A DNA stretch of 52,716 nucleotides, filler included, from Candidatus Limnocylindrales bacterium (GCA_035559535.1; 2 parts of 2 records of this genome joined end to end with filler, not necessarily neighbours in it); one strand, 5' to 3'; shown: positions 1 to 32,525, counted from the first letter of the whole stretch. Numbers and translations are program-made. The notes: a model not told the origin generated them from the sequence alone.

Positions 1-72
1 GCTGAGTTCCAAGGCGCGAAGACGGCGGCCTTCGCGCCAATCCTTAGTTTGGTTTGACAGGGTCAGTTTCAT
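1..72 (-). CDS. IS630 transposase ORF-A N-terminus (partial)
   Basis: Manual translation MKLTLSNQTKDWREGRRLRALELS matches the typical 'DWREGRRLRAxEL' start of IS630 HTH ORFs. Not in the ORF track. Confidence 0.75.
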   Translation of the reverse strand, partial: MKLTLSNQTKDWREGRRLRALELS

Positions 73-140
73 AAAATTTATTTTACTTCCCTGTCTAACT
101 TATAGCTAGAGATTATTAGCAATTTATGCAAAGATCAGTA
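1..140 (-). mobile_element. IS630-family element, left end (TIR CTGATCTTTGCATAAAT at 122-138, TA target at 139-140), truncated by window edge
   Basis: The 17-bp TIR is identical to the one at 52545-52561 and is flanked by TA. The minus strand opens a transposase N-terminus at 72. Confidence 0.8.
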
Positions 141-261
141 ATACGGATACGCCTGCTTTTTTCTATTGAATTCTAAAATAAGTTGGAGTTACAATATTTT
201 CTTGAAAGATTTTTATATCACTTTCCTCTTAAATTCCACCCTCTGGAGACCTTCTCAGGGT

Positions 262-1236
262 ATGAGGCAGCTTCAAAAAGTCCCGTTGGATAAGATCGAT
301 CTGAAGGATCACTTTTTTTTGATAACCTATCCATTAAATCCAGAACCCTTAATTCCCTCTGTGGATAAAGTAGGACTTCTTCAACCTGTTTTTCTCCGGG
401 AACTTCCTTCAGGCCACTACCAAATCGTTCACGGATTTAGGCGAGTTCTAGCCTGTCGAGATCTTCATTTTGAAGCCCTAGAGGCGTGGGTTTATCGTTT
501 GGAGAATCTAGGGGATTTAGAAGGATTCAGGATAAGCCTTCTGGATAACCTGACGCTGCGTCGTTTAAATTTAATAGAGAAAGCAACCGTCTTGTATAAG
601 CTTTTACATCAGTTTGGATTGGAAAAGCAGAAGGTGGTTCAGGAGTATATGCCTTTATTGGATTTAGAGCCGAGTTTGGAGGTTTTAGGGGGATACCTTC
701 AGCTTTACCAATTAAAAAACGAGGTCCAGAGTTATCTGGTTGCAGAGGAAATCCCATTGAAATTGGCTCTGGACTTGCTCCACTTTTCTCCAGAGGATCA
801 AAGGCAGCTTATTTATCTGGCCTCCTCTCTCAAGCTAACCGTCAATACTTTTAAAGAATTTATGACTTTCATAGAGGAAATTATCGGACGAGAAGAAATC
901 CCCCTCGAAAATCTACTTGACGATTTAAATATTCCAGCTATACTAGCAAACTCAGTACTTCCGGTTCCTCAGAAAACCGAGAAAGTTCGGAAAATTTTAA
1001 AACAGAGGAGATATCCTCTCCTGACCTCTCTGGAAGATCAGTTACAGGAAAAACTTAAGCAACTCAGGTTACCCAGGGAAGTGTCCATAGCTTTGCCTCC
1101 TTTTTTAGAAGGGGATCGACTGAAAGTGACCTTTCAATTTCGGAATATAAAAGAGCTGGAGAAAATTTTGACGAAACTCCAGGAACTGATGGATAGAGAG
1201 GAACTGGAGGATATTCTAAGATTACTGAGGGGCTGA
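262..1236 (+). CDS. ParB N-terminal (ParB/Srx) domain protein
   Basis: VGLLQPV...YQIVHGFRRV (GxRR motif), then NLTLRRLNLIEKA. ATG at 262 preferred over TTG at 166. Confidence 0.75.
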   Translation: MRQLQKVPLDKIDLKDHFFLITYPLNPEPLIPSVDKVGLLQPVFLRELPSGHYQIVHGFRRVLACRDLHFEALEAWVYRLENLGDLEGFRISLLDNLTLRRLNLIEKATVLYKLLHQFGLEKQKVVQEYMPLLDLEPSLEVLGGYLQLYQLKNEVQSYLVAEEIPLKLALDLLHFSPEDQRQLIYLASSLKLTVNTFKEFMTFIEEIIGREEIPLENLLDDLNIPAILANSVLPVPQKTEKVRKILKQRRYPLLTSLEDQLQEKLKQLRLPREVSIALPPFLEGDRLKVTFQFRNIKELEKILTKLQELMDREELEDILRLLRG

Positions 1237-1248
1237 AAGAGGACTACT

Positions 1249-1276
1249 GTAGGGGTGACCGGCCGGTCACCCGTTC
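1249..1276 (+). repeat. 28-bp GTAG-type REP-like palindrome
   Basis: GTAGGGGTGACCGGCCGGTCACCCGTTC; same length and architecture as four other copies. Confidence 0.7.
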
Positions 1277-1294
1277 TAAGAGAATAGTGGAAGG

Positions 1295-2359
1295 ATGGAA
1301 CCCTTTAGACCCGAAAGAATTTACATCGATAGAGAAGCCCGAGAAAAGGCTCTGACCCGACAGGTCCTGACCCGATTACCGGGGGTCCCGGTGGAGTACA
1401 TCGAAAACAAGGAAAAGATCGTCTCCAGGTCAGCTTCTGTTGAGGATGCTATTACGGAAGGGAAAAAAAAGTTATTGATCACAACCCAAAAAGGGACCTT
1501 CTTTAAAAGCTGTCCTGGTTGTGTTGAGAGGATGGTTCATTGTAACTATTACATCCTCAATTTAGGCTCCAATTGCCCTATGGAATGTACCTACTGCTTT
1601 CTCCAGGGCTATATCAACAATCCCTTCCTGGTACTGTATGCCAATCTCGAAGATATGATGGCGGAAGTTTCCGCACTTTTTTCGCAATCTCCTAAACGAT
1701 CTTATCGAATCGGGACCGGTGAGTTAATGGATAGTTTAGCCCTGGATGGACTGACTGCAACCAGTCGGGTCTTGATTCCCTTTTTTACGCAATGGGAAAA
1801 TACGTTGCTGGAGCTTAAGACCAAGACCAACCAGGTCGATAATCTTCTCGATCTAGATCATCGAGGTCAGGTGGTGGTTTCCTGGTCCTTAAATCCCCAA
1901 GCGATTATAGAAACTCAGGAATTTAAAACCTCTTCCCTGGAGGAAAGATTGCTGGCGGCCCAGAAATGTCAAGAAGCCGGATATAAAATAGGACTCCATT
2001 TTGATCCGCTTATTTATTATCCAGAATGGGAAAAGGATTATCAAGAATTATTGGATCAGGTATTTTCTCGAATCAACTCCCGGAACATTGCCTGGATTAG
2101 TTTGGGGAGCCTCCGGTTTACTTCGGAATTAAAAGCGGTTATAAGGAAACGGTTTCCGCAAAGTAAGATTCTCTTTGAGGAATTTGCTCCGGGAGTGGAT
2201 GGTAAGATGCGTTATCTTAAACCCATTCGGGTCTCCATGTATCTAAGAATGCTGGAGTGGATCCGAAGGCATGATGCGAAGCTAACCCCTTATCTTTGTA
2301 TGGAAAGTCAAGAAGTGTGGCATAGGGTTTTTTTGGATAGGGAGGGAAAAAAACGATGA
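1295..2359 (+). CDS. Spore photoproduct lyase-family radical SAM protein
   Basis: NCPMECTYCFLQ (CxxxCxxC), GELMDSL, ELKTK, SWSLNP and GLHFDP motifs of the SPL family. Confidence 0.85.
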   Translation: MEPFRPERIYIDREAREKALTRQVLTRLPGVPVEYIENKEKIVSRSASVEDAITEGKKKLLITTQKGTFFKSCPGCVERMVHCNYYILNLGSNCPMECTYCFLQGYINNPFLVLYANLEDMMAEVSALFSQSPKRSYRIGTGELMDSLALDGLTATSRVLIPFFTQWENTLLELKTKTNQVDNLLDLDHRGQVVVSWSLNPQAIIETQEFKTSSLEERLLAAQKCQEAGYKIGLHFDPLIYYPEWEKDYQELLDQVFSRINSRNIAWISLGSLRFTSELKAVIRKRFPQSKILFEEFAPGVDGKMRYLKPIRVSMYLRMLEWIRRHDAKLTPYLCMESQEVWHRVFLDREGKKR

Positions 2360-4431
2360 AACTTTCATTGAAGTGGAAGCTTATTCTAAGTATTGGACTT
2401 CTTATCTTTGTAGCTTTATCCCTGGGTCTGTGGCTCACAGTTCGAAGTATCAAAGAAACCGAATTGGAATCCATTCGACTTAGATCGGATGCCTTAGCCA
2501 ATCCCATCAAAATCCGAATTAAGGAGGTTTTCTCCAATAATTTAGGGGGTATTGAAATGGCTGCTCCGGGCCTTACCCTGGAGTGTCAGCGGATCGTGTC
2601 ATCGAATACTCTTGCCAGTCATTGTTTTGTATTTGATACCGCCGGTAGAATCCTGGCCCACGAGGATCCACACCTCATCGGAACAGCCGAAAAAAATCCC
2701 CAAGTCCTGGAAGCTCTTAAATCAAATAAGGTGATAACCCGACTCATTGAAGACAGTTATGATACCTTTATTCCTATTTTGGATTTGGACCAGCAACAGG
2801 TAGGAACCCTTCGTATAGACTTTCCCCGATCGATTGTGGACGAAAAGATTCGTAAAATTAGCCGGGATTTCGTTATCTTGTTTATCATTCTCTTTGGAGG
2901 GGTTTTGTTTGCCGGTTCTTTTCTGCTTCAGAGAACCATTAACAAGCCTATTCAGCAGATTGTCTCGGTCGCCAGGAAGATGGCCGAAGGGGATATTTCT
3001 GGAAGAGTTCCTGTTAAGGGTGAAGATGAAATTTCTCAGTTAGGGGCCGTCTTTAATCTTCTAATCAATTATCTACAGCATATTATTCAGCAGGTACGAC
3101 AAACCGTAGAGGAACTGAATCAAGCCTCTGAAAGGATGATTGCTTCCAGCACCCGAATCTATCAAGGTTCTGAATCTCAAAAACTCTTTGTGAGTGAAAC
3201 TGCTTCGGCTATGGCGCAAATGGATGGCTCTATTAAAGACACCACCCAACACATCAAGGATCTTATGACTGCAGCGGAGGATAGTTCTGCTTCCATTATG
3301 GAACTCAAAGCTTCCATTGAGGAGATTGCGGCCAATACCGAGAATCTCTCCACCTCTGTAGAACTAACCGTTACCTCCCTGGAAGAGATGAATGTATCCA
3401 TCAAGCAAATCGCTTCCAGTGTGCATCAGTTATCTACGGCAACGGAATCTACGGCGTCCTTTACGGCCCAGATCGATGCCCTGATCAAAGAGGTTGAGAT
3501 GAATGCCAGTGAAACGGCTAAACTCTCGGAGCGGGTTACCCTCAATGCCGAAGCGGGCACCCGATCAGTCCAACAGACCATCAGTGGGATATATAAAATT
3601 CAAGAAGTGACGAATAAAGCCGTAGAGGTGATGGGTAAGTTAAGCGAGAAGGTGGGGAAAATCGGAGAGATTCTCAACGTGATTGATGATGTGGCCGACA
3701 AGACCAATCTCCTGGCGCTTAATGCGGCTATTATTGCAGCACAGGCCGGTGAGCACGGGAAGGGTTTCGCAGTGGTGGCTGATGAAATCAAAGACCTGGC
3801 CGAAAAGACTACGGCTTCTACCAAGGAAATTTCAGATTTGATCCGGGGTGTCCAGTCAGAAACCAGCAATGCCGTTTCGGTGATTTATACCGGGTTAGAG
3901 CAGGTCAAGGAAGGCGTCAGGCTGGCCAATGAAGCCGGAGTCGCCTTGACAGAGATCCTCAATAGTGCCAAACAAGCCACCGATATGACCAGGCATATTG
4001 CACGGGCTACTACAGAGCAAACAAAGGGAAGCAAGCAAATCAAAGATGCCATCGATAACATGGTGGAGATGGTGGAACAAATTACCCGAGCAACGGCAGA
4101 ACAGTCTAAGGGAAGTGGGCAAATTGTCCAGGCCACGGAAACCATGAAGGATATGACCCATCAGGTCAAACGGGCAACCCAGGAACAGGCCCAGGGAAGT
4201 GACCGTGTAGTTCGCGCTACGGAGGATATACAGGGCCAAATCAGCCGTCTGCTTGCTTTAACCCAGAGTCAGGAGAGGGAAAGCGAACGGGTCGTTACCG
4301 CAATGGAAAATATCAAGAAAATCAGCTATTCTAATATAGAAAACATCAGCCAGATGAATGATATCGCCAAAACCTTAACCGAACAAATCAACATTTTGAA
4401 TCAACAGATTGCTAAATTTAAGGTATCATGA
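2356..4431 (+). CDS. Methyl-accepting chemotaxis protein (periplasmic sensor, HAMP, extended signalling domain)
   Basis: Two TM helices, HAMP, and the hairpin-tip motif TNLLALNAAIIAAQAGEHGKGFAVVADEIKDLA. Confidence 0.95.
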   Translation: MKLSLKWKLILSIGLLIFVALSLGLWLTVRSIKETELESIRLRSDALANPIKIRIKEVFSNNLGGIEMAAPGLTLECQRIVSSNTLASHCFVFDTAGRILAHEDPHLIGTAEKNPQVLEALKSNKVITRLIEDSYDTFIPILDLDQQQVGTLRIDFPRSIVDEKIRKISRDFVILFIILFGGVLFAGSFLLQRTINKPIQQIVSVARKMAEGDISGRVPVKGEDEISQLGAVFNLLINYLQHIIQQVRQTVEELNQASERMIASSTRIYQGSESQKLFVSETASAMAQMDGSIKDTTQHIKDLMTAAEDSSASIMELKASIEEIAANTENLSTSVELTVTSLEEMNVSIKQIASSVHQLSTATESTASFTAQIDALIKEVEMNASETAKLSERVTLNAEAGTRSVQQTISGIYKIQEVTNKAVEVMGKLSEKVGKIGEILNVIDDVADKTNLLALNAAIIAAQAGEHGKGFAVVADEIKDLAEKTTASTKEISDLIRGVQSETSNAVSVIYTGLEQVKEGVRLANEAGVALTEILNSAKQATDMTRHIARATTEQTKGSKQIKDAIDNMVEMVEQITRATAEQSKGSGQIVQATETMKDMTHQVKRATQEQAQGSDRVVRATEDIQGQISRLLALTQSQERESERVVTAMENIKKISYSNIENISQMNDIAKTLTEQINILNQQIAKFKVS

Positions 4432-4742
4432 CAAGTCAAAGAAATCAACCCCCGTTAAAAATAACCCTCGTTTACCGAACGGCCTGGTTATTGGGGCTTC
4501 TCCTTCTTATTCTGCTAAGCCTACATCCCTATGCTCATATCTTAGAAGCCCTGGGCCTGGATGATAATTCATCTTGCCACTGGATTCAAACGTCTTTATC
4601 TATCCTTGCCGTCATTCCCAGGCTAGATCCAGGCCTTTTCGCTATTCCGGTTGTTATTATCCTTCTGTCTTTAATCAGTTCTATACTCCTTCACGCCCCT
4701 CTTTCAAGAGCCCCTCCCCTGATCTTCCTGATGGTTATTTGA
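4428..4742 (+). CDS. Putative metal-responsive leader/arrest peptide (DUF2946/CruR-like), copy 1
   Basis: Hydrophobic N-terminus, LHPYAHxLEALGLD..CHWIQ, C-terminal SRAPP. Paralogous to 9070-9381 and upstream of a metal permease. Start overlaps the MCP stop (ATGA). Confidence 0.7.
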   Translation: MTSQRNQPPLKITLVYRTAWLLGLLLLILLSLHPYAHILEALGLDDNSSCHWIQTSLSILAVIPRLDPGLFAIPVVIILLSLISSILLHAPLSRAPPLIFLMVI

Positions 4743-4942
4743 TCCAAATCCATCAACTATCCAACCTTTGATGTCGGTGCTTTGGTTGAAGGTCTATTTT
4801 TTCTAAAAATGGGCTCTTGTACAATCTGGAAGATTATCCCTATTCAACCTTCGACCCTGGTTTTTTAAATATTTAGCTGTTGGCTTCTGATCAATCCAGA
4901 GACTCCCACACTGTTTACTTAGTTTTGCTTAACTTTTAAGTG

Positions 4943-5253
4943 GCCTCACTCCTGGTCCCTCTCCCACACTACGGGAGAGGAAAGTTGGGGAGTGAAGGCA
5001 GCCCTAGTAGGTCAAACATCCTCGTTTGATAAAAGAGCAAAATTAAGTAAACGGTGTACTCCAAGCTATCAGTGTGGAGAGTCCTTTGCCAGATCCTGTC
5101 CTGAGTTGAGGATAAGCTTCGCGATGAGCCATCTTCCTCACTCCGGGAGATAGTTTCAGTTGGACTGTCGCTGACCAGTGATAGTCCCAACCTATCCTGC
5201 TCAACTTAACCTGCTCCTGTCCCACAGCGTGGGAAAGGGGCCGGAAGTGAGGG
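4943..5253. repeat. Region bounded by inverted CCCTCACCCC..CCCTCTCCC-type palindromic repeats
   Basis: cctcactcctggtccctctcccacac (4944-) is the approximate reverse complement of gcgtgggaaaggggccggaagtgagg (~5227-5252). Relatives occur at 20110-20199 and 51573-51617. Confidence 0.55.
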
Positions 5254-5273
5254 GATTATGAGAGGATTCAGCC

Positions 5274-6137
5274 ATGACTCAGTTTTTAACCTTTATGTTG
5301 GCCCCCTTTCTGGCCTGTTTAATTCTCGTAGGGATCCATGTATATTTGGGCATTCACATCCTGGCGCGGGGGGTCATCTTTGTAGATTTAGCCCTTGCCC
5401 AGATTGCTGCACTGGGGGCAGCAACAGCCATATTATTCGGCTATGAGTTAGAAAGCTTCCCTGCCTACCTGTTTTCCCTGTTGTTTACCTTCATCGGTGC
5501 CCTGGTTTTTTCCCTGACTCGCATGCGCCATCCCAAAATACCCCATGAAGCCATCATCGGAATTACTTATGTGGTTGCAGCGGCTACCATCATTCTTATT
5601 ATGGCTAAAGCTCCCCATGGGGCCGAACATGTTCAAAGTCTTTTGGTTGGATCGATTCTATGGGTCAGTTGGTTTGTCGTGGCTAAAACGGCTGTAATCT
5701 ACTTGATGGTAGGAATTATCCATTGGATCCTCCGAAAAAAATTTCTGCTGATCTCCTTTAATCCCGAACAGGCTATAGAACAGGGAATCTCCATTCGGTG
5801 GTGGGACTTTCTTTTCTATGCCATCTTTGGCTTTGTGGTTACGAGTTCAGTTTCCATTGCAGGGGTTTTGTTGGTTTTTACTTTCTTGATCGTCCCAACC
5901 GTATTTGCTGTGTTATTTACCGATAATTTATCCTCCCGTTTAATCATCGGTTGGATTTTCGGTACCCTGGTCAGTATGATAGGGAGCGTGCTTTCCTACA
6001 CCCTGGACCTTCCCACGGGAGCGGCCATTGTTTGCACATTTGGAGTAGCCTTATTGGGAGGTGCAGGGGTTAAGAACTTTTTAAATAAGAAATACCTGGC
6101 AGAGAAACGTCTGGGGCTTGTGGAAAGGGGCTCCTGA
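5274..6137 (+). CDS. Metal ABC transporter permease (ABC-3, ZnuB/MntB family)
   Basis: HVYLGIHILARGVIFVDLALAQIAALG, EAIIG, GVLLVFTFLIVP, DLPTGAAIV; multiple TM helices. Confidence 0.9.
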   Translation: MTQFLTFMLAPFLACLILVGIHVYLGIHILARGVIFVDLALAQIAALGAATAILFGYELESFPAYLFSLLFTFIGALVFSLTRMRHPKIPHEAIIGITYVVAAATIILIMAKAPHGAEHVQSLLVGSILWVSWFVVAKTAVIYLMVGIIHWILRKKFLLISFNPEQAIEQGISIRWWDFLFYAIFGFVVTSSVSIAGVLLVFTFLIVPTVFAVLFTDNLSSRLIIGWIFGTLVSMIGSVLSYTLDLPTGAAIVCTFGVALLGGAGVKNFLNKKYLAEKRLGLVERGS

Positions 6138-6254
6138 TGGAAGTGTTCATAAAATACCCCACCTGAACCCTTTCAGAAGTAAGTTTTTTCACCCCATCCC
6201 CTTCCCGAAACTCGGGAATGGCCAGGGCTCCACTCTCCCCTCAACCTGGGCTTC

Positions 6255-6496
6255 CCTAGGCACCAGGTTGAGGCGCCCCCACCCGGTCCCTCCCCATTTC
6301 ACAAGGAAGCCTCCCTTTCCTTTATATCCCCCCCCCTTCCTCTGCATGCGGGGGGAAGGGGGCAGGGGAATTGAGGGGAGGGAATGTCGCTTCAAAGTTC
6401 CTTTCCCTGCATGCGGAGGAAGTTAGTAGGTTAAACGTCTCGTGTGACATTAAGGGGACACCCCTCAGGGATCCCACTCTTATCCTGGCGCGTAGG
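6255..6496 (+). mobile_element. MITE-like element, copy 1 (~240 bp)
   Basis: Imperfect TIRs (CCTAGGCACCAGGTTGAG / CTTATCCTGGCGCGTAGG); body homologous to 11344-11570 and to the reverse complement of 17153-17377. Confidence 0.75.
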
Positions 6497-6624
6497 CCCC
6501 CGGCCCCTATCCCACGCTGCAAAAAAGGACCGAAGGGTCAGGTTCAAAAAATCTACTCCAGAAAGGAAGAAGTGAGGCGGTCCTTATCCTCTATCCCTCC
6601 TTTCAATGCCGACCTACTATGACC

Positions 6625-7578
6625 TTATGGCTGGACATTGAAGGATTGCAATTGTTTAAACTCTGTCTCCAGCTTCGAAATAATCCGTTCAAAAAGTTTG
6701 GGATAGGTATCTATACCTTCTTCCCCTCCCACCGCCGCAGGTAAAATAACCAGCTTCGCTCCGGATTTATCGGCTACCAGTTGGGCAATTTTAGGATCTG
6801 TATAGTTACCGTTTAAGATGATCTTGATCTTCTTTTCTTTTATCAACTCAGTTATAAAGGCCAAATGTTTGGCGGTGGGTGGAATACCGGGCTTTTCTTC
6901 AATATATCCTGCGGCGGAAAATCCCAACCAATTCATGAGATATTCAAACAACTTATGGTAGGAAACAACTTGAGTGCCTTTGAACGGAGCCATCCGTTTT
7001 TCCCAATCTGCGATCTGAGTCGTAAGTTTATCCTGAAAATTTTTGAAATTGGACTCAAAGTAGGCACTGTCTTTAGGAGAGAGTAATTTGAGCCGATCCA
7101 GGATCTCCTGACCGACTATAATTCCGTTACGTGGATCCAGCAGATAGTGGGGATTTCCTTCCGGGTGAACGTCTCCCATACTTCGATCCACTTCACCGGT
7201 GGGAACTTCTAAAACCCGGATGGCCCGAGAGGCATCCAGATTTCCTTTACCTCCCAGGTTGATGGCCGGGTTTCGAGCTCCTTGAATAAGCAGGGGGAGC
7301 CAGCCTATTTCGAGCTGAAGGCCAGTATAGATAAGCAGATCGGCTTGATTAAGCTGGACCATATAGCTGGGTTTGGCTTCGAGAAAATGGGGATCTTGGT
7401 ATCCTTTGGCAATGCTTTGAACTTTAACCTTATGGCCGCCGATCTCCTGGGTAATGGCCGCTAAATCCGGAACCGTGGTCACAACTTTGAGTTCTGCTTG
7501 AGCTGGATTTATAAAAAAGGTTATTGTAAAAAAAGCCAGAAGACCGATCCAGATTTGTACTAACTTAGTAGATTTCAT
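6625..7578 (-). CDS. Metal ABC transporter substrate-binding protein (ZnuA/TroA cluster A-I)
   Basis: Signal peptide, QDPHF, GDVHPEGNPHYLLDP, YHKLF, EEKPGIPP. Confidence 0.9.
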   Translation of the reverse strand: MKSTKLVQIWIGLLAFFTITFFINPAQAELKVVTTVPDLAAITQEIGGHKVKVQSIAKGYQDPHFLEAKPSYMVQLNQADLLIYTGLQLEIGWLPLLIQGARNPAINLGGKGNLDASRAIRVLEVPTGEVDRSMGDVHPEGNPHYLLDPRNGIIVGQEILDRLKLLSPKDSAYFESNFKNFQDKLTTQIADWEKRMAPFKGTQVVSYHKLFEYLMNWLGFSAAGYIEEKPGIPPTAKHLAFITELIKEKKIKIILNGNYTDPKIAQLVADKSGAKLVILPAAVGGEEGIDTYPKLFERIISKLETEFKQLQSFNVQP

Positions 7579-7674
7579 GAGCAAGGAACAGGGTGAGTCC
7601 GGAGTGAAGAGACAGGAAGAAGAGGGTTCGGCTTCAAAGCTCTTAACTCCTGACCCCCTTACTTTTATTGGTTG

Positions 7675-8901
7675 TTAATACTGATGAGCCGGATGGGAAC
7701 CAATGGTGAAGTTCACCTGGGCGAGAACTTGATGAATTCCCTCCTCATCTTCGGGTTTTAAATAGTTATACTGAACCCGGAAGGCTGAAAACTCGGTAGG
7801 GACAAAGGCTAATAAGCTACTGACTCGATAAGTTTTGCCTTCCCCCTCAGCTTCAGGTATTCCCAGAAGATCATACCTTCCTTGAATCCACCATCGTCGG
7901 GCAAACTGGTATTGGACTAAGGTATAAAGACCTCCAACCTTATCAAAGGTCTGGTCTGCAGGGTCCTTCTTTGCAAAGAGATACTCGGTTTGCCAGATGA
8001 AGGCGCGATAGAGGGCGCGTTGGGGGGGTCTCCACTTGAGGGTCAGATCCACGCCCGCTGCCTGGGAGATTTCCTCAAATTCGTTCTTTCCAACTGCATA
8101 GGATTCTCCCAGTTCCAGCGTTGTGGCATCAGATAAATCCCACAAGTTTTTAAAGTGAGCTAAATACGCCAGGTCACTTCCTTTAGGACTATTAAAGAGA
8201 ACCTCGTTATCTCCGTTCAAAAGATCCAGTCTGACTTCTGAAAACCAGGGTAATTTGAGGAGATAACTTACATCGACACCTATCTCCGTGAGCCCTTCCT
8301 CTCCAAAAATCCTCTCATTAATCAGAGGCGGATCGATAAAAGGAAATTGATGGGTATGAAGCAAGTTATGTTTTCCGAAAGGATCATGGAGTTTACCTAT
8401 CCGGAGAATAACCGAAGGAATATTCAAGGTGCTTATATAGCCTTCCTCGACTTCAACTCCTTTACCTTCCGGAAGGGCTAAAATGACATCGGCCCGAAGA
8501 TAGGGATCTACAAAGGCCGAAAATTGAGCCTCTACTTCCTGAATGTGGACTCCGGTTGTGATTTCCTTACCGGGTCTTACTTCCGCCTCTGCACCCGGTT
8601 CCCAAGATGTATAGCTTCCCAAAAAAAGACCGTTTATACTGATGGCCGGATTAAAAGCCCGGGAAAGGCCGGTAGCCGTAGAACCACCGGTCCCTAAGGG
8701 GGGTGAACCGGTCTGGGTTCCAGGTTGTGGAGAAGCTGGCCCAGGTTGTTGGGGAGTTGGACCCGGTGCCGATGGGGCTTGCTCAAGAGCCTTTTGAAAT
8801 TCTTCCTCCAAAGATTTTGTTTTTTCTTCTGGTTGTTGCGCAAAGGAGGTGTTCAAAAAACAAATAAGACTAAAAATCGAAAGAACTCCTGCCCATTTCA
8901 T
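7675..8901 (-). CDS. Outer-membrane beta-barrel protein of metal-uptake loci (often annotated as zinc-regulated OM receptor)
   Basis: Signal peptide, Pro-rich linker, FNPAIS, VDPY, GKHNLLHTH, amphipathic strands, C-terminal IGSHPAHQY. Confidence 0.7.
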   Translation of the reverse strand: MKWAGVLSIFSLICFLNTSFAQQPEEKTKSLEEEFQKALEQAPSAPGPTPQQPGPASPQPGTQTGSPPLGTGGSTATGLSRAFNPAISINGLFLGSYTSWEPGAEAEVRPGKEITTGVHIQEVEAQFSAFVDPYLRADVILALPEGKGVEVEEGYISTLNIPSVILRIGKLHDPFGKHNLLHTHQFPFIDPPLINERIFGEEGLTEIGVDVSYLLKLPWFSEVRLDLLNGDNEVLFNSPKGSDLAYLAHFKNLWDLSDATTLELGESYAVGKNEFEEISQAAGVDLTLKWRPPQRALYRAFIWQTEYLFAKKDPADQTFDKVGGLYTLVQYQFARRWWIQGRYDLLGIPEAEGEGKTYRVSSLLAFVPTEFSAFRVQYNYLKPEDEEGIHQVLAQVNFTIGSHPAHQY

Positions 8902-9069
8902 CCTGTTAGCCTCCCTTCTATTAAGCTTATAAAGTCCGTAGGCCTTAATATCCAGGAATGGTCTAATTTCTTGGCAAAAGCAGGCCTTTCTACGTCCTTT
9001 ATAAGGATGAAAAACCCCTTTTACGGTAAGATAAAGTAAACGTGTGGGTCTTTATTTTTTGAAACGAAG

Positions 9070-9381
9070 TCAGGAGGCAGAGGAGGGAGGGGCTCTTGAA
9101 AAGAGAAAAGTAGGATGAATCAGAATGATAAGAAAAATTCTTTGAAATAGAGCAGGGATAATCAGAATGGTAAAAAAGACGAGGATAATACCTTCCAGAA
9201 TAAAAACGGCCATTTGAACCCATTGGCAATTTAAGTAATTATTATCCAGGCCAAGGGTTTCTAAGGGGTGGATATAGGGGTGGAGTACCAGAATGGCGAA
9301 GAAAAGAAGGTTGATAAATAGCCGACTTCTTCGGCCCGGCTGTAAGAAGGTTTTTAAGATCTGGAAATTCATAAGGTTCAT
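9070..9381 (-). CDS. Putative metal-responsive leader/arrest peptide (DUF2946/CruR-like), copy 2
   Basis: LHPYIHPLETLGLDNN..CQWVQ...SRAPP; first ORF upstream of the OM protein and SBP; paralogue of 4428-4742. Confidence 0.72.
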   Translation of the reverse strand: MNLMNFQILKTFLQPGRRSRLFINLLFFAILVLHPYIHPLETLGLDNNYLNCQWVQMAVFILEGIILVFFTILIIPALFQRIFLIILIHPTFLFSRAPPSSAS

Positions 9382-9462
9382 AGGTCCAGACTCTGGAACT
9401 TAAATTTTGGATGCCTGCAAGGATAATTTTCTTACCTTTTCCTTGTCGGTTCTATAGGTTTA

Positions 9463-9490
9463 ATAATACTCTCAACCTGAAAGAGGTCAA
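9463..9490 (-). promoter_or_regulatory. Candidate sigma70 promoter for the leader-OM-SBP unit
   Basis: TTGACC-N16-TATTAT on the minus strand, about 80 bp upstream of the leader ATG. Confidence 0.4.
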
Positions 9491-9918
9491 GTAAGAATTT
9501 ATTATAGTAACTGTAATACTCCCGAAAATTGCCTTACGATTTTCACGCTTTGTGGCGACCCAACGGGTCATGGCCATTTAGCAGGAATCACTTTTTTCTG
9601 TCTGAACACCCCTCTAATCCCTTTTTAAGGGTAGGTTTTTTCTAAATCTAACCCCATTGTCAATCGAGACGATCGACCTACTAACCCTATAGGCACCGGG
9701 ATAAGTAGGTTAACCGTCACAGTTGACGAAGAGGTTAGTCAAAGCTATGGCAACCTGTGGATAATCCCTGGGTAAGCTAGGGGAAACAGAATCTATCACC
9801 CTCTAAGCCTCAACGGGGCGGCCTGTTTAGCAAGCTGCTCCTATGGCGGGGGGTTCCAGGATTTAACCAGGGAATTTTCTGGCAAGAAGCAAGTTGATGG
9901 TGTATTATATAATACAAT

Positions 9919-10626
9919 ATGGATAAAGCCACAATCCTCCAAATTATCAAAGAGCACCTTCCTCAGCTTTTAAGGGAAGACGAGCGTTTTAGGTATGAAA
10001 TTAAGGGTCTGCTGGCCGAGACTTTTTCATCAAAGGAGGAGTTTCAGGCTGTTTTAGAGGAGGTTCGGGCTTTACGCGAAGATACCAACCGACGGTTTGA
10101 GGAAGTAAACCGACGGTTTGAGGAGACCAACCAGCGGATTGAAGCTTTACGCGAAGACACCAACCGACGGTTTGAGGAAGTGAACCGACGGTTTGAGGAA
10201 ATGAACCGACGGTTTGACCACCAGGATGACCAAATACATCAGATTCGGCTCGAACTGTCTGCGATAAGCGGACGATTGGGAAGAGGGATGGAAGAGGTCA
10301 TCCGACGAACCATCGAGAGATTCTCAGGACGACATTTCCGAGAAGTCAAACGGCTTGTCCTTGAAGATGAAGAGGGAGAGGTCTTTGGAACTGGGGCTCA
10401 AGTCGAGTTTGATGCTTATCTGGAAGACACCGACTCTTTTGTGGTCGAAGTTAAAACCCATATTCGAACGGATGATGTATACACATTGAAGAAAAAGGTG
10501 GAGTATGCCCAGAGGAAATTGCAGAAATCTTTAAATCCTGTAGTAATTTCCTCTAGTATTGACCAAAGAGCAAAAAGATTGTGTGATGAATTAGGTATTC
10601 AGGTCATCTCACGGAGTGTTTTATAA
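9919..10626 (+). CDS. Coiled-coil heptad-repeat protein with C-terminal PD-(D/E)XK nuclease-like domain (DUF3782-like)
   Basis: NRRFEE heptads, then GR(L)GRGMEE..., VEFDAY...VVEVKT. Confidence 0.75.
   Translation: MDKATILQIIKEHLPQLLREDERFRYEIKGLLAETFSSKEEFQAVLEEVRALREDTNRRFEEVNRRFEETNQRIEALREDTNRRFEEVNRRFEEMNRRFDHQDDQIHQIRLELSAISGRLGRGMEEVIRRTIERFSGRHFREVKRLVLEDEEGEVFGTGAQVEFDAYLEDTDSFVVEVKTHIRTDDVYTLKKKVEYAQRKLQKSLNPVVISSSIDQRAKRLCDELGIQVISRSVL
10069..10217 (+). repeat. Intragenic 21-bp heptad repeats nested in a 75-bp duplication
   Basis: aaccgacggtttga occurs five times; gctttacgcgaaga(t/c)accaacc at 10069 and 10144. Confidence 0.9.
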
Positions 10627-10664
10627 ATCTTTAGAGCTTACCCCATCGGTATTTTTCCTTGATT

Positions 10665-10787
10665 TCAAGTCAGGTTAAGGCTTCCCACCTCCTCTAACAA
10701 CGCCTTTGCCTCCTTCAAATCCGCCATATCAAACCCCTCTGTAAACCACCCATAAATCTCCGCTAGTATCGCTCTCGCTTCTTCTTT
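10665..10787 (-). pseudogene. 3' remnant of an adenylate-cyclase/AAA(STAND)-TPR gene
   Basis: Manual translation [40 protein letters not shown]; this is the conserved 'LAxIYxWFTEGFDTxDLxEAKALL' terminus of that family. Confidence 0.75.
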
Positions 10788-10834
10788 TATGTCAAACGGG
10801 ACGTTTAACTTACTATCCAAACAGGTATTGACAA

Positions 10835-10851
10835 ATGCAATCCAGTTGCAT
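10835..10851. promoter_or_regulatory. Zur box
   Basis: ATGCAATCCAGTTGCAT is one mismatch from the deltaproteobacterial Zur consensus ATGCAACnnnGTTGCAT. It lies between TTGACA (10828) and TATAAT (10858), just before zur. Confidence 0.75.
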
Positions 10852-10867
10852 TAACCATATAATAACT

Positions 10868-11290
10868 ATGGTAGAACTAACTCAAATCCTGCAAAACCTT
10901 AAGTCCCGCGGTTATCGACTTACCAAAACCCGAAAGCAAATCATTGGCATCTTCCTGGAGAGTAAAGTTCCCTTATCCGCTCAAGAATTATGGTCAGAAC
11001 TTCAAAGAAGAAACTACCAGGTGGATAAGGCAACGGTTTATCGAGAAATCGCCTTCTTAAAAGGACAAAAAATTGTGCGGGAAGTCCAGTTTGGGGAAGG
11101 GAAAAAGAGATTTGAGATTAATTTAACGGATCATCATCACCATATCGTGTGTATTCGATGTGAGAAAGTGGATGACATTGTCTTAGAAAACGATTTGAGG
11201 GATCAAGAGAAAAAAATTTTTGAACTTAAAAAGTTTAAAGTTTTGAATCATTCCCTGGAGTTTTTTGGTCTTTGTACAAAATGTCAGTGA
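10868..11290 (+). CDS. zur: Fur-family zinc uptake regulator
   Basis: GYRLT..R, ATVYR, HHHHIVCIRC, GLCTKC; heads znuACB. The track start (10835) lies inside the Zur box, so ATG 10868 is preferred. Confidence 0.85.
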   Translation: MVELTQILQNLKSRGYRLTKTRKQIIGIFLESKVPLSAQELWSELQRRNYQVDKATVYREIAFLKGQKIVREVQFGEGKKRFEINLTDHHHHIVCIRCEKVDDIVLENDLRDQEKKIFELKKFKVLNHSLEFFGLCTKCQ

Positions 11291-11343
11291 GTCATTGGGA
11301 TGGAATCTTCACTTGTCCTTTGATGGGAAAGGGGGTCCGAGGG

Positions 11344-11570
11344 CATAGGCGCCAGGTTAAGGCGTCCCCATCTGGTCCCTCCCTCGTTTCACAAAGAAGC
11401 CTCCTTTCCCCTATATTCCCCCGCACACAGGGGGAATTGAAGGGAGGGAACATTGCTTCAAAGTTCCTTCTCCTGCAAACTAAGGTAGGGGCGCAAGGCC
11501 TTGCGCCCGTACAATGTCTCGTTTGACATTAAGGGGGCTCATGGATCTCACCCTTATCCTGGCGCGTATG
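11344..11570 (+). mobile_element. MITE-like element, copy 2, carrying a nested REP
   Basis: TIRs CATAGGCGCCAGGTTAAG / CTTATCCTGGCGCGTATG; flanks gggtccgaggg / gggccagaggg. Confidence 0.75.
11485..11512 (+). repeat. 28-bp GTAG-type REP-like palindrome inside MITE copy 2
   Basis: GTAGGGGCGCAAGGCCTTGCGCCCGTAC; absent from the other two MITE copies. Confidence 0.8.
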
Positions 11571-11597
11571 GGGCCAGAGGGTGAGGGCCGGGCAGAT

Positions 11598-12524
11598 ATG
11601 CTCAGGTTTGTATCCTATTATCTGATTTTTAACCTGTTAGCCTTGACGGTTGTGCTTTCGGTGCAAGCCTCAGCCGAGGAGAAATTGAAGATTGCTGCAA
11701 GTTTTTATCCTTTGGCAGAACTGGCCCGGCAGGTGGGAGGAGATCGGGTAGAGGTTATCAATATGACTCCTGCCGGCGTGGAGCCCCATGACTACGAACC
11801 GACCCCACGGGATATCATCAAAATCCGTTCTGCAAAAGTTTTCCTTTTTAACGGGGGTAATACAGACGCCTGGGCGGAAAAGATTCAAGAGGATCTGAAA
11901 AACCGAGGCGTAGAAGTAGTAAATATCAGTGAAACGCTGGCTAAAAGTGGTGAGTTATTAAAAGGCCCGGAAGTGGTGGAGGCATCTGAAAAGGTCGGAT
12001 TCGATCCCCATTTCTGGCTGGATCCCGTATTGATGCAGAAACAGGCTATGGTGGTTCGGGATGTTCTGATAAAAGTAGATCCCGGAAATGCAGAATATTA
12101 TACCAAAACCACCGCAAATTATTTAAGTGAATTGGCGACTTTAGATGAGAAATACAGAGAAGGTCTGGCCCATTGTCAAATTCGAGACGTTATTACCTCC
12201 CACGCTGCCTTTGGGTATTTAGCCCGGCGTTATAATCTGAACATGATTTATATTTCCGGACTCTCACCGGATGAAGAGCCCTCACCCCGGAGATTAGCCG
12301 ATATTGCTACGTTGGCACGCCAGAAGAACATAGAATATATTTTCTTTGAGCCCCTCGCCAGTCCCAAACTGGCTCAAACCATCGCCCAAGAAGTTGGAGC
12401 AAAGACGTTAGTTTTTAATCCTATTGAAGGTTTGACCGATGAGGAGGTACAGGCCGGAAAGAACTATATCTCTATCATGGAAGAGAACCTGAAAAACCTG
12501 CGGATAGCTTTACGATGTCAATGA
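11598..12524 (+). CDS. znuA: Zinc ABC transporter substrate-binding protein
   Basis: GVEPHDYEP, DPHFWLDP, SHAAFGY, EP, NPIE. Start moved to ATG 11598 because the track's N-terminus is MITE sequence. Confidence 0.9.
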   Translation: MLRFVSYYLIFNLLALTVVLSVQASAEEKLKIAASFYPLAELARQVGGDRVEVINMTPAGVEPHDYEPTPRDIIKIRSAKVFLFNGGNTDAWAEKIQEDLKNRGVEVVNISETLAKSGELLKGPEVVEASEKVGFDPHFWLDPVLMQKQAMVVRDVLIKVDPGNAEYYTKTTANYLSELATLDEKYREGLAHCQIRDVITSHAAFGYLARRYNLNMIYISGLSPDEEPSPRRLADIATLARQKNIEYIFFEPLASPKLAQTIAQEVGAKTLVFNPIEGLTDEEVQAGKNYISIMEENLKNLRIALRCQ

Positions 12525-13276
12525 CCACTTCTCCTGTTTGCATAGAGGTAAAAAACGTTAGTTTTAGCTATAACGGCCTCCCCGTTTTAACCAATATAAG
12601 CTTTTCTGTAAAAGAAGGAGAATATTTAGGAATCATCGGACCGAATGGAGGAGGTAAAACCACGCTGCTTAAAATCATTTTAGGTCTCCTCAAGCCAACT
12701 TCTGGTGAAGTCCTCATTTTTGGGCAGAACATTCAAAGCTTTAAGAACCGTTTTTTAATCGGCTATGTGCCTCAGCGTATGGCGGAGGCCGGACTTCATT
12801 TCCCTGCGACGGTGGAAGAGATTGTAAGAACCGGACGTACGGCCAGAGTCGGATTGCTTAAAAGATTTAAGAAAGAAGATCTTGCAGCTGTGCAAAAAGC
12901 CATGGAAATTGCCGATGTTACAGACTACAAGAACCATCTGATCGGTCATCTATCCGGAGGTCAACGTCAGAGGGTTTTTATTGCAAGGGCTTTAGTAGGA
13001 GACCCCAAAATACTCATTCTGGACGAACCGACAACTGGGGTAGATATTTTATCTCAAGAGAAATTCTATACTTTTCTTCGGAATCTTAACCATCAAATGG
13101 GATTAACGGTCATTGTGGTTTCACATGATATCGGTGTCGTGATCGATGAAGTCAGTACCGTTTTGTGCTTAAATCGTACCCTGGTTTGTCAGGGCCCTCC
13201 CAACGAGTTCTTAAAAGATGAGTATATGGAAAAGTTGTACGGTAAAAAGGTAAAGTTCCTGATCCATAAATATTAA
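12521..13276 (+). CDS. znuC: Zinc ABC transporter ATP-binding protein
   Basis: GPNGGGKTT, YVPQ, LSGGQRQR, LDEP, SHD. Confidence 0.92.
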   Translation: MTTSPVCIEVKNVSFSYNGLPVLTNISFSVKEGEYLGIIGPNGGGKTTLLKIILGLLKPTSGEVLIFGQNIQSFKNRFLIGYVPQRMAEAGLHFPATVEEIVRTGRTARVGLLKRFKKEDLAAVQKAMEIADVTDYKNHLIGHLSGGQRQRVFIARALVGDPKILILDEPTTGVDILSQEKFYTFLRNLNHQMGLTVIVVSHDIGVVIDEVSTVLCLNRTLVCQGPPNEFLKDEYMEKLYGKKVKFLIHKY

Positions 13277-13280
13277 ACCT

Positions 13281-14114
13281 ATGTTTGAGATTTTCCAATT
13301 CGATTTTATGATTCGGGCCTTTGTGGCAGGAGCTGTTATTGCCCTCATTGCTCCCATGATCGGGATCTTTCTGGTCGTTCGACGTTATTCTCTCATGGCA
13401 GATACCCTGGCCCATGTGTCGTTAGCAGGGGTAGCCGTAGGTCTTCTGACTAAGATGAATCCACTGGTAACCGGCATTGTAACCCCTGTAATCGCGGCGT
13501 TTTGTATCGAAAAGCTGAGAAGTGCCAGAAATATATCGGGTGAATCCCTCCTGGCTCTGTTTCTTTCTGGAAGTCTGGCCATCGCCATCGTTCTTCTAAG
13601 CATAGCCAAGGGATTCAACGCCAGCCTTTTTAGCTTTCTATTTGGAAGTATCTCAACCGTTATGCCGAATGATTTATACCTGATTGTAGGCCTGGGAATT
13701 TTGGTTTTAGTTACCATCCTGGCGCTCTATAAAGAATTATTTGCCGTTTCCTTCGATGACGAATTGGCAAGAGCCTCGGGTATTTCCGCTCCGGTCTTTA
13801 ATCTGATACTCACCGTCTTAGCCGCCATAACGGTATCCCTGGCCATGAGAATCGTAGGGGTGTTACTCATAGGCGCTCTCATGGTTATACCTGTTATAGC
13901 TGCCATTCAATTTGGGCGTAGCTTTCGCCAAACCCTCCTTCTCTCTATCGCCTTTTCTTCCCTGTCTGTATTCCTGGGACTCTTCCTGTCTTTCTACCTG
14001 GATCTGGCCAGTGGGGGAACCATTGTCGTGATTGCCCTTATTATTTTTTTATTGAGCCTGTTAAGACAGACCTTGAAAAAAACTTTTCTCATTAAAGTCC
14101 AAAGTGGATTTTAA
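13281..14114 (+). CDS. znuB: Zinc ABC transporter permease
   Basis: RRYSLMADTLAHVSLAG, FLFGSI, FDDELA, VGVLLIGALMVIP. Confidence 0.92.
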   Translation: MFEIFQFDFMIRAFVAGAVIALIAPMIGIFLVVRRYSLMADTLAHVSLAGVAVGLLTKMNPLVTGIVTPVIAAFCIEKLRSARNISGESLLALFLSGSLAIAIVLLSIAKGFNASLFSFLFGSISTVMPNDLYLIVGLGILVLVTILALYKELFAVSFDDELARASGISAPVFNLILTVLAAITVSLAMRIVGVLLIGALMVIPVIAAIQFGRSFRQTLLLSIAFSSLSVFLGLFLSFYLDLASGGTIVVIALIIFLLSLLRQTLKKTFLIKVQSGF

Positions 14115-14235
14115 AACTTTGGGTCCCGTCTCTGGAAGGATTTGATAGAACCTTTTCATGGTGAAGGAAGTTCCCTCCCGGCTATAAACTGGTTGCCTCT
14201 CCGGAGTTAAACGAATTGGATTTTGAAATAATTTC

Positions 14236-15150
14236 TTAGCTGGAGATACTCTGCCTGACCGCTTCCCATCCCAAAATCGCCTTCTTCCTCGCCGTACCCC
14301 ATTCATAATCCCCTATCATACCTACTTTTCGAATAACTCTATGGCAGGGAATGAGGAAGCCGATGGGATTTTGACTAACCGCCCGACCCACCGCACGGGA
14401 AGCTTTTGGTTTCCCTAGATAAGTGGCAATATCTTCATAGGAAACCAGAAACCCGGGCGGGATCCTCAGTAAAGCTTCCCAGACCTTTATTTGGAAATTA
14501 GTTCCTTTTACAAATAAATTCAGTGGGCGTATTTCTTCCCGATTTGACGATGGATTTTGTAAAGACGTCGGTGATATTATCCTTAACCGCCGAAAAGGAG
14601 TAAATATTCGATTGATCAAAGGCTGGGTATCTTGAAGGCTCTCATAAAACTGTGCCTGCTTCCATTTGTTTTTTAGATTTTTCAGGGCACCTTCCCGATC
14701 ATTGTCCTGAACAAAGGCCAGATCGCAAATTCCCCTGTCCGTTATGGAAAGTAAGCACTCTCCAAAAGGGCTGGGATGAAAGCCATACAAAATGGTCAGT
14801 CCGTAACCGTTCTTTTTAAATTCCCCGGGGGTTACCGCTTCAAAATTAATAAACAGGTCATGGAGACGACCCGGGCTGGACAATCCGGTTTCATAGGTCA
14901 CGTCCAGGATACTTTTGGATTCCTTCAGTAATTTCTTTGCATACTCAAGGGTTAAAAACTGTAAGAATCGTTTGGGGCTAATACCGGCCCAGCGTTTGAA
15001 AAGGCGTTGAAAATGATACTCACTTAGATTGACACTTTGGGCGACTTCCTTCAAATCGGGTTGTTTAAGAAAATTCTTTTCAAGGAACAAAATGGCTTTT
15101 TCTATTCGCGCATAATCTAAAGATGATTGGAGATAATTTTGCGTTAGCAT
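14236..15150 (-). CDS. ada: Bifunctional AraC-type regulator / O6-methylguanine-DNA methyltransferase (Ada-like)
   Basis: HFQRLFKRWAGISPKRF HTH, GTNFQ..VWEAL, active site PCHRV. SD GGAGGAGGA precedes ATG 15150. Confidence 0.88.
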   Translation of the reverse strand: MLTQNYLQSSLDYARIEKAILFLEKNFLKQPDLKEVAQSVNLSEYHFQRLFKRWAGISPKRFLQFLTLEYAKKLLKESKSILDVTYETGLSSPGRLHDLFINFEAVTPGEFKKNGYGLTILYGFHPSPFGECLLSITDRGICDLAFVQDNDREGALKNLKNKWKQAQFYESLQDTQPLINRIFTPFRRLRIISPTSLQNPSSNREEIRPLNLFVKGTNFQIKVWEALLRIPPGFLVSYEDIATYLGKPKASRAVGRAVSQNPIGFLIPCHRVIRKVGMIGDYEWGTARKKAILGWEAVRQSISS

Positions 15151-15282
15151 GGTATCCTCCTCCAGGGTTTTGAGATTGTTCTTTATATCCAATATAAAAA
15201 CCCTGAGGAGGATAACCACCCAATTCTTGCTACTTTCTGATTGGAATTTCCTCATCCAGGGAAGATCTTTAACCTGGTCGGT

Positions 15283-20653: not shown

Positions 20654-20753
20654 NNNNNNNNNNNNNNNNNNNNNNNNNNNNNNNNNNNNNNNNNNNNTTA
20701 ATTAATTAANNNNNNNNNNNNNNNNNNNNNNNNNNNNNNNNNNNNNNNNNNNN
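20654..20753. other. Artificial contig spacer (44 N + TTAATTAATTAA + 44 N)
   Basis: All-frame-stop linker at 20698-20709 between N runs. Confidence 0.97.
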
Positions 20754-32097: not shown

Positions 32098-32172
32098 TGT
32101 CCTGATTTCTGACATTATTTGATCTGTTTTTCAGATAAGATGTTTTTAAAAGTATTGTAAGATTTTAAGACA
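32098..32172. promoter_or_regulatory. Pair of candidate enhancer sites (inverted version of the 26160-26232 pair)
   Basis: TGTCCTGATTTCTGACA (32098-32114) and TGTAAGATTTTAAGACA (32156-32172). Confidence 0.55.
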
Positions 32173-32264
32173 AAAAAACATCCAGGGAGATCTTTACTTT
32201 TATTTTATTTAATCTATAATAATTTTTACTACGATACTTTGCGCCATTTCTAGGTATTGAAATC

Positions 32265-32279
32265 TGGCATATCCATTGC
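32265..32279 (+). promoter_or_regulatory. Sigma54 promoter of the usp-antiporter-nrfHA unit
   Basis: TGGCAT-ATCCA-TTGC. Confidence 0.8.
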
Positions 32280-32525
32280 GATAGCTTCTTAGAAAATGAG
32301 GAAGTGAAATCTTCTTTGATGGTCATGACAAAAGTTACCCGGTCGAAAGATTAGACCTCAACCCGCTCACGTGGAGGATCTTAAATCTAATAAAAACTCC
32401 GGGGAATGTTTATTAAAACGAGAGTCTAGGGCGAAGACCTCTCATCCCGATAAAACAGAAAGTAGAAGACAGGGGACAACTTATCACCTAACACCTGCTG
32501 TCTTCTAAGTCTAAGGAGTATAGCT

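Follow-up and report, generated by a model that had tools for sequence, protein, structure and literature searches.

Paralogous RAPP-ending leaders before both parts of a split metal importer in a Candidatus Limnocylindrales genome: candidate metal-responsive ribosome-arrest peptides

Two small paralogous open reading frames (ORFs), here leader 1 and leader 2, precede the two separated parts of a metal importer in a stretch of 52,716 nucleotides (nt) from Candidatus Limnocylindrales bacterium (GCA_035559535.1), referred to as the window. Both end in the motif Arg-Ala-Pro-Pro (RAPP) and, judging from their sequence, are very probably regulatory arrest peptides. The favoured reading, put forward with some reserve, is that they would act in cis as ribosome-arrest leaders comparable to CruR and CutF, holding the importer ON at low metal and OFF at high metal.

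Leader 1 (4428..4742, + strand, 104 amino acids (aa)) and leader 2 (9070..9381, - strand, 103 aa) were confirmed to share the two motifs which the initial annotation had reported, LHPYxHxLExLGLDxN..CxWxQ and SRAPP. The likely start of leader 2 is Met4 at 9372, where its homologues begin. The architecture is common to both and consists of an N-terminal hydrophobic segment, a His/His/Glu/Cys set, a hydrophobic spacer (very hydrophobic in leader 2) and RAPP. These features are His33, His37, Glu40 and Cys50, with RAPP at 94-97 (4707-4718) and a 7-residue tail, in leader 1, and His34, His38, Glu41 and Cys52, with RAPP at 96-99 (9096-9085) and a 4-residue tail, in leader 2. The leaders are identical at 34 of 84 positions (40%; BLASTP E 2e-14), and a tblastn search of the 5.6-Mb genome returned them as the sole significant matches of one another. 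Both are annotated as genes in public collections. In comparison with a genome of the same genus, G001, leader 1 has a ratio of nonsynonymous to synonymous substitution rates (dN/dS) of 0.35 and leader 2 one of 0.09, the genes around them giving values from 0.04 to 0.12. Both ORFs are real, paralogous genes under purifying selection, and leader 1 is the less constrained. Neither leader has a Pfam or NCBIfam match, and homologue searches reached this lineage alone, with three proteins, three clusters among 1.84 billion and one diverged metagenome locus, L028, between which and the window synonymous sites are near saturation. The ESM Atlas offered leads only, namely unnamed clusters at 0.92 and DUF2607 at 0.90.

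The terminal motif is the first line of evidence for arrest. In all ORFs of the genome of at least 200 aa, RAPP and RGPP occur once each, in comparison with 14 occurrences of AAPP, 11 of KAPP and 13 of QAPP; RAPP is strongly avoided in this proteome, and its presence in both leaders is more than chance. Throughout the lineage the R-x-P-P motif is RAPP, RGPP or RDPP and is followed by a tail of 4-8 residues; at L028, RGPP ends the leader on the permease side and RDPP the one on the outer-membrane side. Mutagenesis of ApdA and ApdP found that Gly in place of Ala at the second position is fully permissive, Asp partly so, and Arg irreplaceable (PMC12992588), so that the drift at L028 would stay within arrest-permissive variants. 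ApdA, ApdP and SecM share with the leaders an arrest core of the RAPP type in which position 2 also occurs as G or D, but they precede genes of the Sec/YidC machinery and carry no metal-ligand cluster (PMC12992588).

The second line of evidence is the pattern of conservation upstream of the motif. In leader 2 numbering, His34, Tyr36, His38, Glu41, Cys52, Trp54, Gln56 and the S-R-x-P-P end are invariant in 10/10 aligned leaders. Of the HxxxH pair and acidic residues proposed as ligands, both His and Glu are thus conserved throughout and Asp46 varies; the spacer from Gln56 to Ser95 has no invariant column. All 11 sequences have a single conserved Cys and lack a CxxC, and in all 11, from both paralogue groups, this Cys lies 44 residues before the Arg, with 43 intervening residues. 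Leaders upstream of related importers, described below, have the second Cys of a CxxC at 42-47 residues from the Arg (median 44.5, n=38), and in CruR, where the distance is 46, removal of two residues kept copper control while addition of five impaired it (PMC9426467). Since the spacing matches both, the lone Cys most likely corresponds to the second Cys of the CxxC, which bears out the earlier view that a CxxC has been reduced to one Cys, with the second retained at the family spacing.

The export signal was judged by hydropathy, with 17-residue Kyte-Doolittle means of 2.17 and 2.21 for the N-terminal segments. An AlphaFold model of the leader, of low confidence (pLDDT 64, pTM 0.31), predicts helices at 17-43 and 53-88 and places His34, His38 and Glu41 at i, i+4 and i+7 on one helix; in such a model the same-face His/His/Glu together with the Cys could form a four-ligand site. 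The Cys, 44 residues before the arrest site, could lie on either side of the membrane, and periplasmic sensing, as suggested earlier, would be one of two options.

Position relative to the importer is the third line of evidence. The ABC-3 (ZnuB/AztB-type) permease gene (5274..6137, + strand) follows leader 1 and is inverted relative to the usual operon, while leader 2 is followed on the - strand by genes for an outer-membrane protein (7675..8901) and a ZnuA-family solute-binding protein (SBP; 6625..7584), converging on the permease. The same split arrangement and pair of leaders are present at 3/3 loci of the lineage (window, G001 and L028). A scan with the permease matched 590 relatives, the best 80 of which were kept (loci L033-L112), and among these 80 the importer is collinear where its genes are visible, in the order outer-membrane protein, SBP, permease. 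An ORF with a transmembrane (TM) segment and RxPP precedes 43 of the 67 testable outer-membrane genes, 0/71 SBPs, 0/78 permeases and 8/399 other long ORFs, and a control motif precedes 6/67 outer-membrane genes. An earlier pass had placed the motif before 48/67; four without a hydrophobic segment were dropped, leaving 44 relatives for profiles, 38 of them with CxxC. No candidate leader lies within 450 nt of 17/67 outer-membrane genes, at least two of which have a leader one gene further upstream. A His/CxxC/RAPP leader is also found upstream of the outer-membrane gene in four unrelated genomes. The expectation that RAPP leaders hold a conserved position upstream of this importer is thus borne out, as is the association of the duplication with the split operon.

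Variants of this arrangement were seen in further loci. At L027 (G037) the leader is internal, the order being SBP, permease, leader and outer-membrane gene, and at L083 a second leader, with CxxC and RGPP, follows the permease and precedes an 888-aa TonB-receptor-like ORF. At L025 (G023) the operon continues into further transporter- and regulator-like genes, which we take to resemble a CbiMQO-type Ni/Co transporter and NikR. A paralogous importer at G000:C50:1-2247 and G001:C24 (L023) has an ABC-3 permease fused to an outer-membrane-protein-like domain, with an adjacent ATPase; the fused permease has 681 aa in G001, and many of the 80 loci have long permeases of about that size.

The leader tree splits arm 1 (leader 1 and permease) from arm 2 (leader 2, outer-membrane protein and SBP) with support 91/88 (unstarred). 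It is unrooted, an outgroup of eight of the 44 relatives having given long branches that fail to root it, and the order of events is therefore inferred. Since collinear relatives have no leader before the permease, duplication of the leader probably accompanied inversion of the permease; the most economical account is an inversion of the permease in this lineage, with a leader copy ending up before it.

When 25,115 segments of the genome are scored with a profile of the 44 relatives' leaders, leader 1 comes first and leader 2 third (E 0.0015 and 0.31). The link to the CxxC leaders rests on position, architecture and spacing, and sequence homology is weak. The same profile ranks sixth and second a further related pair of TM and His/Cys leaders (G000:C55:30320-30682 and 32166-32555, both +), which end in RSPP and RAPP, have His-x-Cys 46 residues before the Arg and precede genes for a small membrane protein and a porin-like protein.

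The two leaders stand differently within their transcripts. Leader 2 follows a sigma70-like promoter, TTGACC-16-TATTAT (9463..9490, - strand), whose TTGAC and TATTAT are conserved in 3/3 loci. The ATG of leader 1 overlaps the stop codon of a chemoreceptor gene (methyl-accepting chemotaxis protein; 2356..4431, + strand) as ATGA, likewise in 3/3 loci, and because of this overlap and the lack of a supported promoter, leader 1 is probably an internal gene of the chemoreceptor transcript. The statement that leaders head both arms consequently applies to leader 2 and not to leader 1. A sigma70-like site at 4401-4429 was considered as a promoter of leader 1 and rejected; it overlaps the ATG, and the scan gave 11 sites where shuffles gave 9.6. 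Nor is there support for an internal promoter in the 3' end of the chemoreceptor gene. It had been suggested by a run of 101 nt identical to G001 (4258-4358, the longest), which carries no weight because 117 differences in 2076 nt make such a run expected about one third of the time.

The gap between leader 1 and the permease (4743..5273, + strand) measures 531 nt in the window and is shorter in G001 (387 nt) and in L028 (165 nt). Its length is inflated by a segment of about 156 nt (~4902-5057), lacking in G001, which matches a genome-wide repeat with up to 77 other hits, and a second repeat (~5203-5262) has 22 hits. A coding remnant in this gap was sought by six-frame reading and discarded, no frame being open in both genomes.

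Among known systems, CruR (Bp2923) of Bordetella pertussis is similar in being a small upstream ORF with an export or TM segment, metal ligands set at a constant distance ahead of its C-terminal RAPP, a C-rich 3' end and a long gap (162 nt, in comparison with 168 nt in arm 2) before an outer-membrane metal importer (PMC9426467). The spacing of its family is given as 45 intervening residues, plus or minus one to two, against 43 in the leaders described here, and the class combines metal-dependent relief of arrest with Rho-dependent termination (PMC9426467). CruR differs in its CxxC and its copper TonB-dependent transporter, whereas here one Cys and His-x3-His-x2-Glu precede a ZnuA/ABC-3-type importer, in two paralogous copies, one of them inside another operon, with a very hydrophobic spacer. 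CutF of Rhodobacter capsulatus is likewise a nascent exported sensor in which a proline-rich stall motif controls the next ribosome-binding site (PMC9973294), but it carries CxxxC and PPP, its stall is induced by copper, and its target is a detoxifying oxidase (PMC9973294; bioRxiv 2025.02.05.636593). With an importer downstream, a stall that means ON at low metal is expected here, unlike in CutF. The leaders conform to CutF-like rules, being shorter than 150 aa, with Pro-Pro among the last 15 residues (4-7 residues from the end), an export signal by hydropathy only, a same-strand gene within 1000 nt (168 and 531 nt) and His/His/Cys. The CutF-like survey already proposes non-copper members, clusters with His only being thought to sense Ni or Co (PMC9973294).

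The survey of RAPP/RGPP peptides by Fujiwara et al. likewise describes small membrane or secretory ORFs with a C-terminal RAPP before metal genes (PMC12992588). Among the part of its supplementary rows covered here, a motif search retrieved no member of the single-Cys family, and the 21 'permease' rows are all RND efflux and none ABC-3. The leaders resemble CruR and CutF by every testable sequence criterion except the DUF2946 profile and the CxxC. Membership of DUF2946 is not supported by profile, 0/10 sequences matching it (PF11162); the CxxC-type positional relatives match it weakly (7/44 at E <=0.1). Since two defining features of that family, profile and CxxC, both fail, the leaders are not filed under it.

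That the leaders sense metal at all is somewhat better than an even prospect, and the evidence on which metal comes from the transporter. The SBP has His at its third ligand position. Mn-binding cluster A-I SBPs, PsaA and MntA, have Glu there, and the His accordingly points to the zinc-type subgroup. The idea that loss of a Cys retuned the sensor to Zn, Co or Ni finds no support, since relatives before the same importer keep His together with CxxC (38/44); it is for this reason that zinc is inferred from the transporter and not from the ligands. Zinc is the most likely metal on these grounds, and its identification as the specific signal is tentative.

A Fur-family gene and znuACB lie nearby (10835-14114). 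The palindrome AATGCAA-N5-TTGCATT (10834..10852, + strand), a putative Zur operator, is located between the -35 and -10 elements of the Fur-family gene which heads znuACB, and it is also present at the Fur-family promoter in G001. In the window, G001 and L028 alike, neither arm has a copy nearby with up to three mismatches; if the palindrome is taken as the operator, the earlier observation that neither arm has a Zur box is correct. The genome holds one perfect site, which suggests a very small regulon, and the Fur-family gene probably starts at a later ATG, at 10868.

In the favoured mechanism, the N-terminal hydrophobic segment would direct the growing peptide to the membrane, and translation would stall at RAPP; in the ApdA/ApdP class the stalled ribosome holds the third motif codon in its P site and the fourth in its A site. 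The stalled ribosome would cover the C-rich 3' end of the leader and the importer arm would be ON, while an uncovered 3' end would pair with the ribosome-binding site belonging to the next gene, load Rho, or both. With metal plentiful, His-x3-His-x2-Glu on one helix face and the Cys would bind it, the resulting folding would pull on the chain, the ribosome would finish and the arm would be OFF. A more specific version, in which a zinc-sensing His2-Glu-Cys arrest peptide, duplicated at the operon break and independent of Zur, is freed from its RAPP stall as metal closes a two-helix membrane hairpin, appears doubtful when taken as a whole.

Two outputs of the stall can be considered. In the predicted fold of arm 2, the last codons of leader 2, with a candidate anti-Shine-Dalgarno GCCTCC (9073..9078, - strand), pair with the Shine-Dalgarno (SD) GGAGGC of the outer-membrane gene (8909..8914, - strand), 168 nt past the stop region of leader 2 (z -2.83); this pairing is predicted and alone not significant. 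The helix between this tail and the SD would be within reach of a ribosome halted at the first Pro. At L028, the fold prediction likewise joins the tail of the arm-1 leader to the start region of the permease (z -2.03). Recoding of six arms with synonymous codons gave p values of 0.76, 0.16, 0.86, 0.17 (0.06 with an alternative start), 0.03 and 0.04 for a 20-nt target, and of 0.05-0.34 for a 32-nt target picked afterwards. Recoding p is below 0.05 in 10/44 relatives, and in 25/44 CCT, yielding CCUCC, is the first Pro codon, against 24.5% in local Pro-Pro pairs; some of these loci are kin, and the counts are not of independent cases. The evidence for an anti-SD switch amounts to support in the wider family and a suggestion in arm 2; arm 1 of the window gives none. 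The other candidate output is termination by Rho, as in CruR; a rho gene is present in the genome, and towards their ends the leaders have C-to-G ratios of 2.6 and 3.75, in comparison with at most 1.84 in five neighbouring genes, both of which are compatible with it.

Several observations weigh against the proposed mechanism and its link to known leaders. RAPP alone is insufficient for arrest (PMC12992588), and at E <=10 the DUF2946 profile matched none of the 10 aligned members and nothing in the genome. Once the RAPP end is removed from the relatives' profile, neither leader is within the top 15, and hhalign of the leaders against the relatives gives 58.7% probability, covering the C-terminal half. 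Leader 1 evolves faster (dN/dS 0.35-0.48), and the gap which follows it has tolerated repeat insertions. As to the anti-SD pairing, synonymous recoding in the window gives p 0.76 for arm 1 (0.12 with the wider target) and 0.16 for arm 2 (0.34 wider). Blocking the leader end barely shifts predicted SD access, which goes from 0.29 to 0.24 in arm 1 of the window, from 0.41 to 0.40 in arm 1 of G001 and from 0.41 to 0.43 in arm 2 of G001. Pro-Pro pairs in this genome most often begin with CCT in any case (1371/3267, 42%), and the bias of C over G is partly expected from hydrophobic codons. Finally, the first Cys of the pair which CruR needs for copper control is gone in 11/11 sequences.

This last point bears most directly on the alternative that the leaders still stall and no longer sense metal, acting as constitutive keep-on elements which shield an anti-SD or Rho site. 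In CruR, a change of CxxC to SxxS keeps expression and loses copper control, and RAPP mutants lose expression (PMC9426467), which speaks for this alternative, as does a separate Fur-family gene with znuACB next door. A dead sensor would not be expected to keep His, His, Glu and Cys invariant in both paralogue groups despite the drift of the spacer, nor the exact 44-residue Cys spacing, and this alternative is considered improbable.

The hydrophobicity of the spacer raises the question of whether the leaders monitor membrane insertion or secretion in the manner of MifM or SecM, with the translocon pulling on a second hydrophobic segment. The best 19-residue Kyte-Doolittle mean of the spacer is 2.4-2.9 in 9/10 leaders, exceeding the 38 CxxC relatives (median 1.2, maximum 2.29), and the long predicted AlphaFold helix begins about 43 residues from the arrest site. 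The arm-1 leader of L028 has, on the contrary, a weakly hydrophobic spacer (1.49), the downstream genes encode a metal importer and not Sec/YidC, and the positional homologues carry His and CxxC, which leaves little likelihood for this explanation.

It is also conceivable that the finished peptides act in trans as accessory subunits or metal chaperones, with RAPP inherited and leader 1 not regulating the permease. The two predicted helices with a His/Glu/Cys loop would suit such a protein, as would the internal, translationally coupled position of leader 1 and a permease gap that ranges from 165 to 531 nt. Such a protein would, however, need no second copy before the relocated permease, and the retention of one is evolutionary evidence for cis action and for a need of the leader by each part of the importer; moreover, R-x-P-P is invariant in a proteome which avoids RAPP, and the spacer is constrained in length and not in sequence. 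Action in trans is consequently rated as having a slim chance. Least plausible is a thiol redox signal, through modification or an intermolecular disulfide of the single Cys, in place of metal occupancy: the Cys is invariant at the ruler position and disulfide formation has been proposed to aid release in CutF (bioRxiv 2025.02.05.636593), but one Cys per window leader makes an intramolecular disulfide impossible and the invariant His-x3-His-x2-Glu would be left unexplained.

On the + strand, the chemoreceptor gene is the last of a run which begins with a ParB-like gene and a spore-photoproduct-lyase-like radical SAM gene and leads into leader 1 and the permease; this run (166-4431) is conserved in 3/3 loci of the lineage and has no evident link to metal uptake, and a chemoreceptor occurs in 0/80 fetched relative loci. 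No ATPase is found within the importer genes of this locus. In the relatives, an ABC ATPase hit of any kind accompanies the module of outer-membrane protein, SBP and permease in 7/80 loci and directly follows the permease in one; the module may borrow an ATPase, here perhaps ZnuC at 12515-13276, or work without one. An Rfam search of 1-16000 found no riboswitch, its six weak matches all falling under the gathering score. Intergenic hairpin repeats at 4902-5057, 5203-5262, 6200-6560, 9480-9800 and 11300-11600 have 20-77 other hits in the genome and vary in presence between two congeneric genomes. A DUF3782 / PD-(D/E)XK coiled-coil gene (9919-10626) is located between leader 2 and the Fur-family gene, with an apparent gene remnant on the opposite strand beyond it. 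In the window, a run of N at 20654-20753 connects contigs C31 and C41, whose facing ends share a 410-nt inverted sequence with 89% identity.

Both the arrest principle and the association of RAPP leaders with this outer-membrane family are known already, in print or in published source data. The new features are a duplication tied to operon inversion, a single-Cys site that keeps the exact spacing of the family, a hydrophobic spacer and, for leader 1, an internal position. A literature search, with little coverage of subscription journals, found no zinc-sensing arrest peptide that had been tested and no duplicated leaders on a split operon. In the accounts available, metal sensing by nascent arrest peptides has so far been shown for copper alone, in CruR and CutF. 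The leader pair constitutes a natural test of how the ligand releases or prolongs the stall, in which one Cys rules out the CutF-type intramolecular disulfide while the 44-residue ruler is kept exactly, and the two paralogues offer RAPP, RGPP and RDPP variants for comparison. If the more specific, zinc-sensing version, considered doubtful above, is true, the leader 2 copy would gate the porin and the SBP from its own promoter, and leader 1 would be an internal gate through which an unrelated chemoreceptor transcript also yields the permease. The organism would thereby achieve Zur-independent, co-ordinated control of two convergent transcripts by means of nascent peptides.

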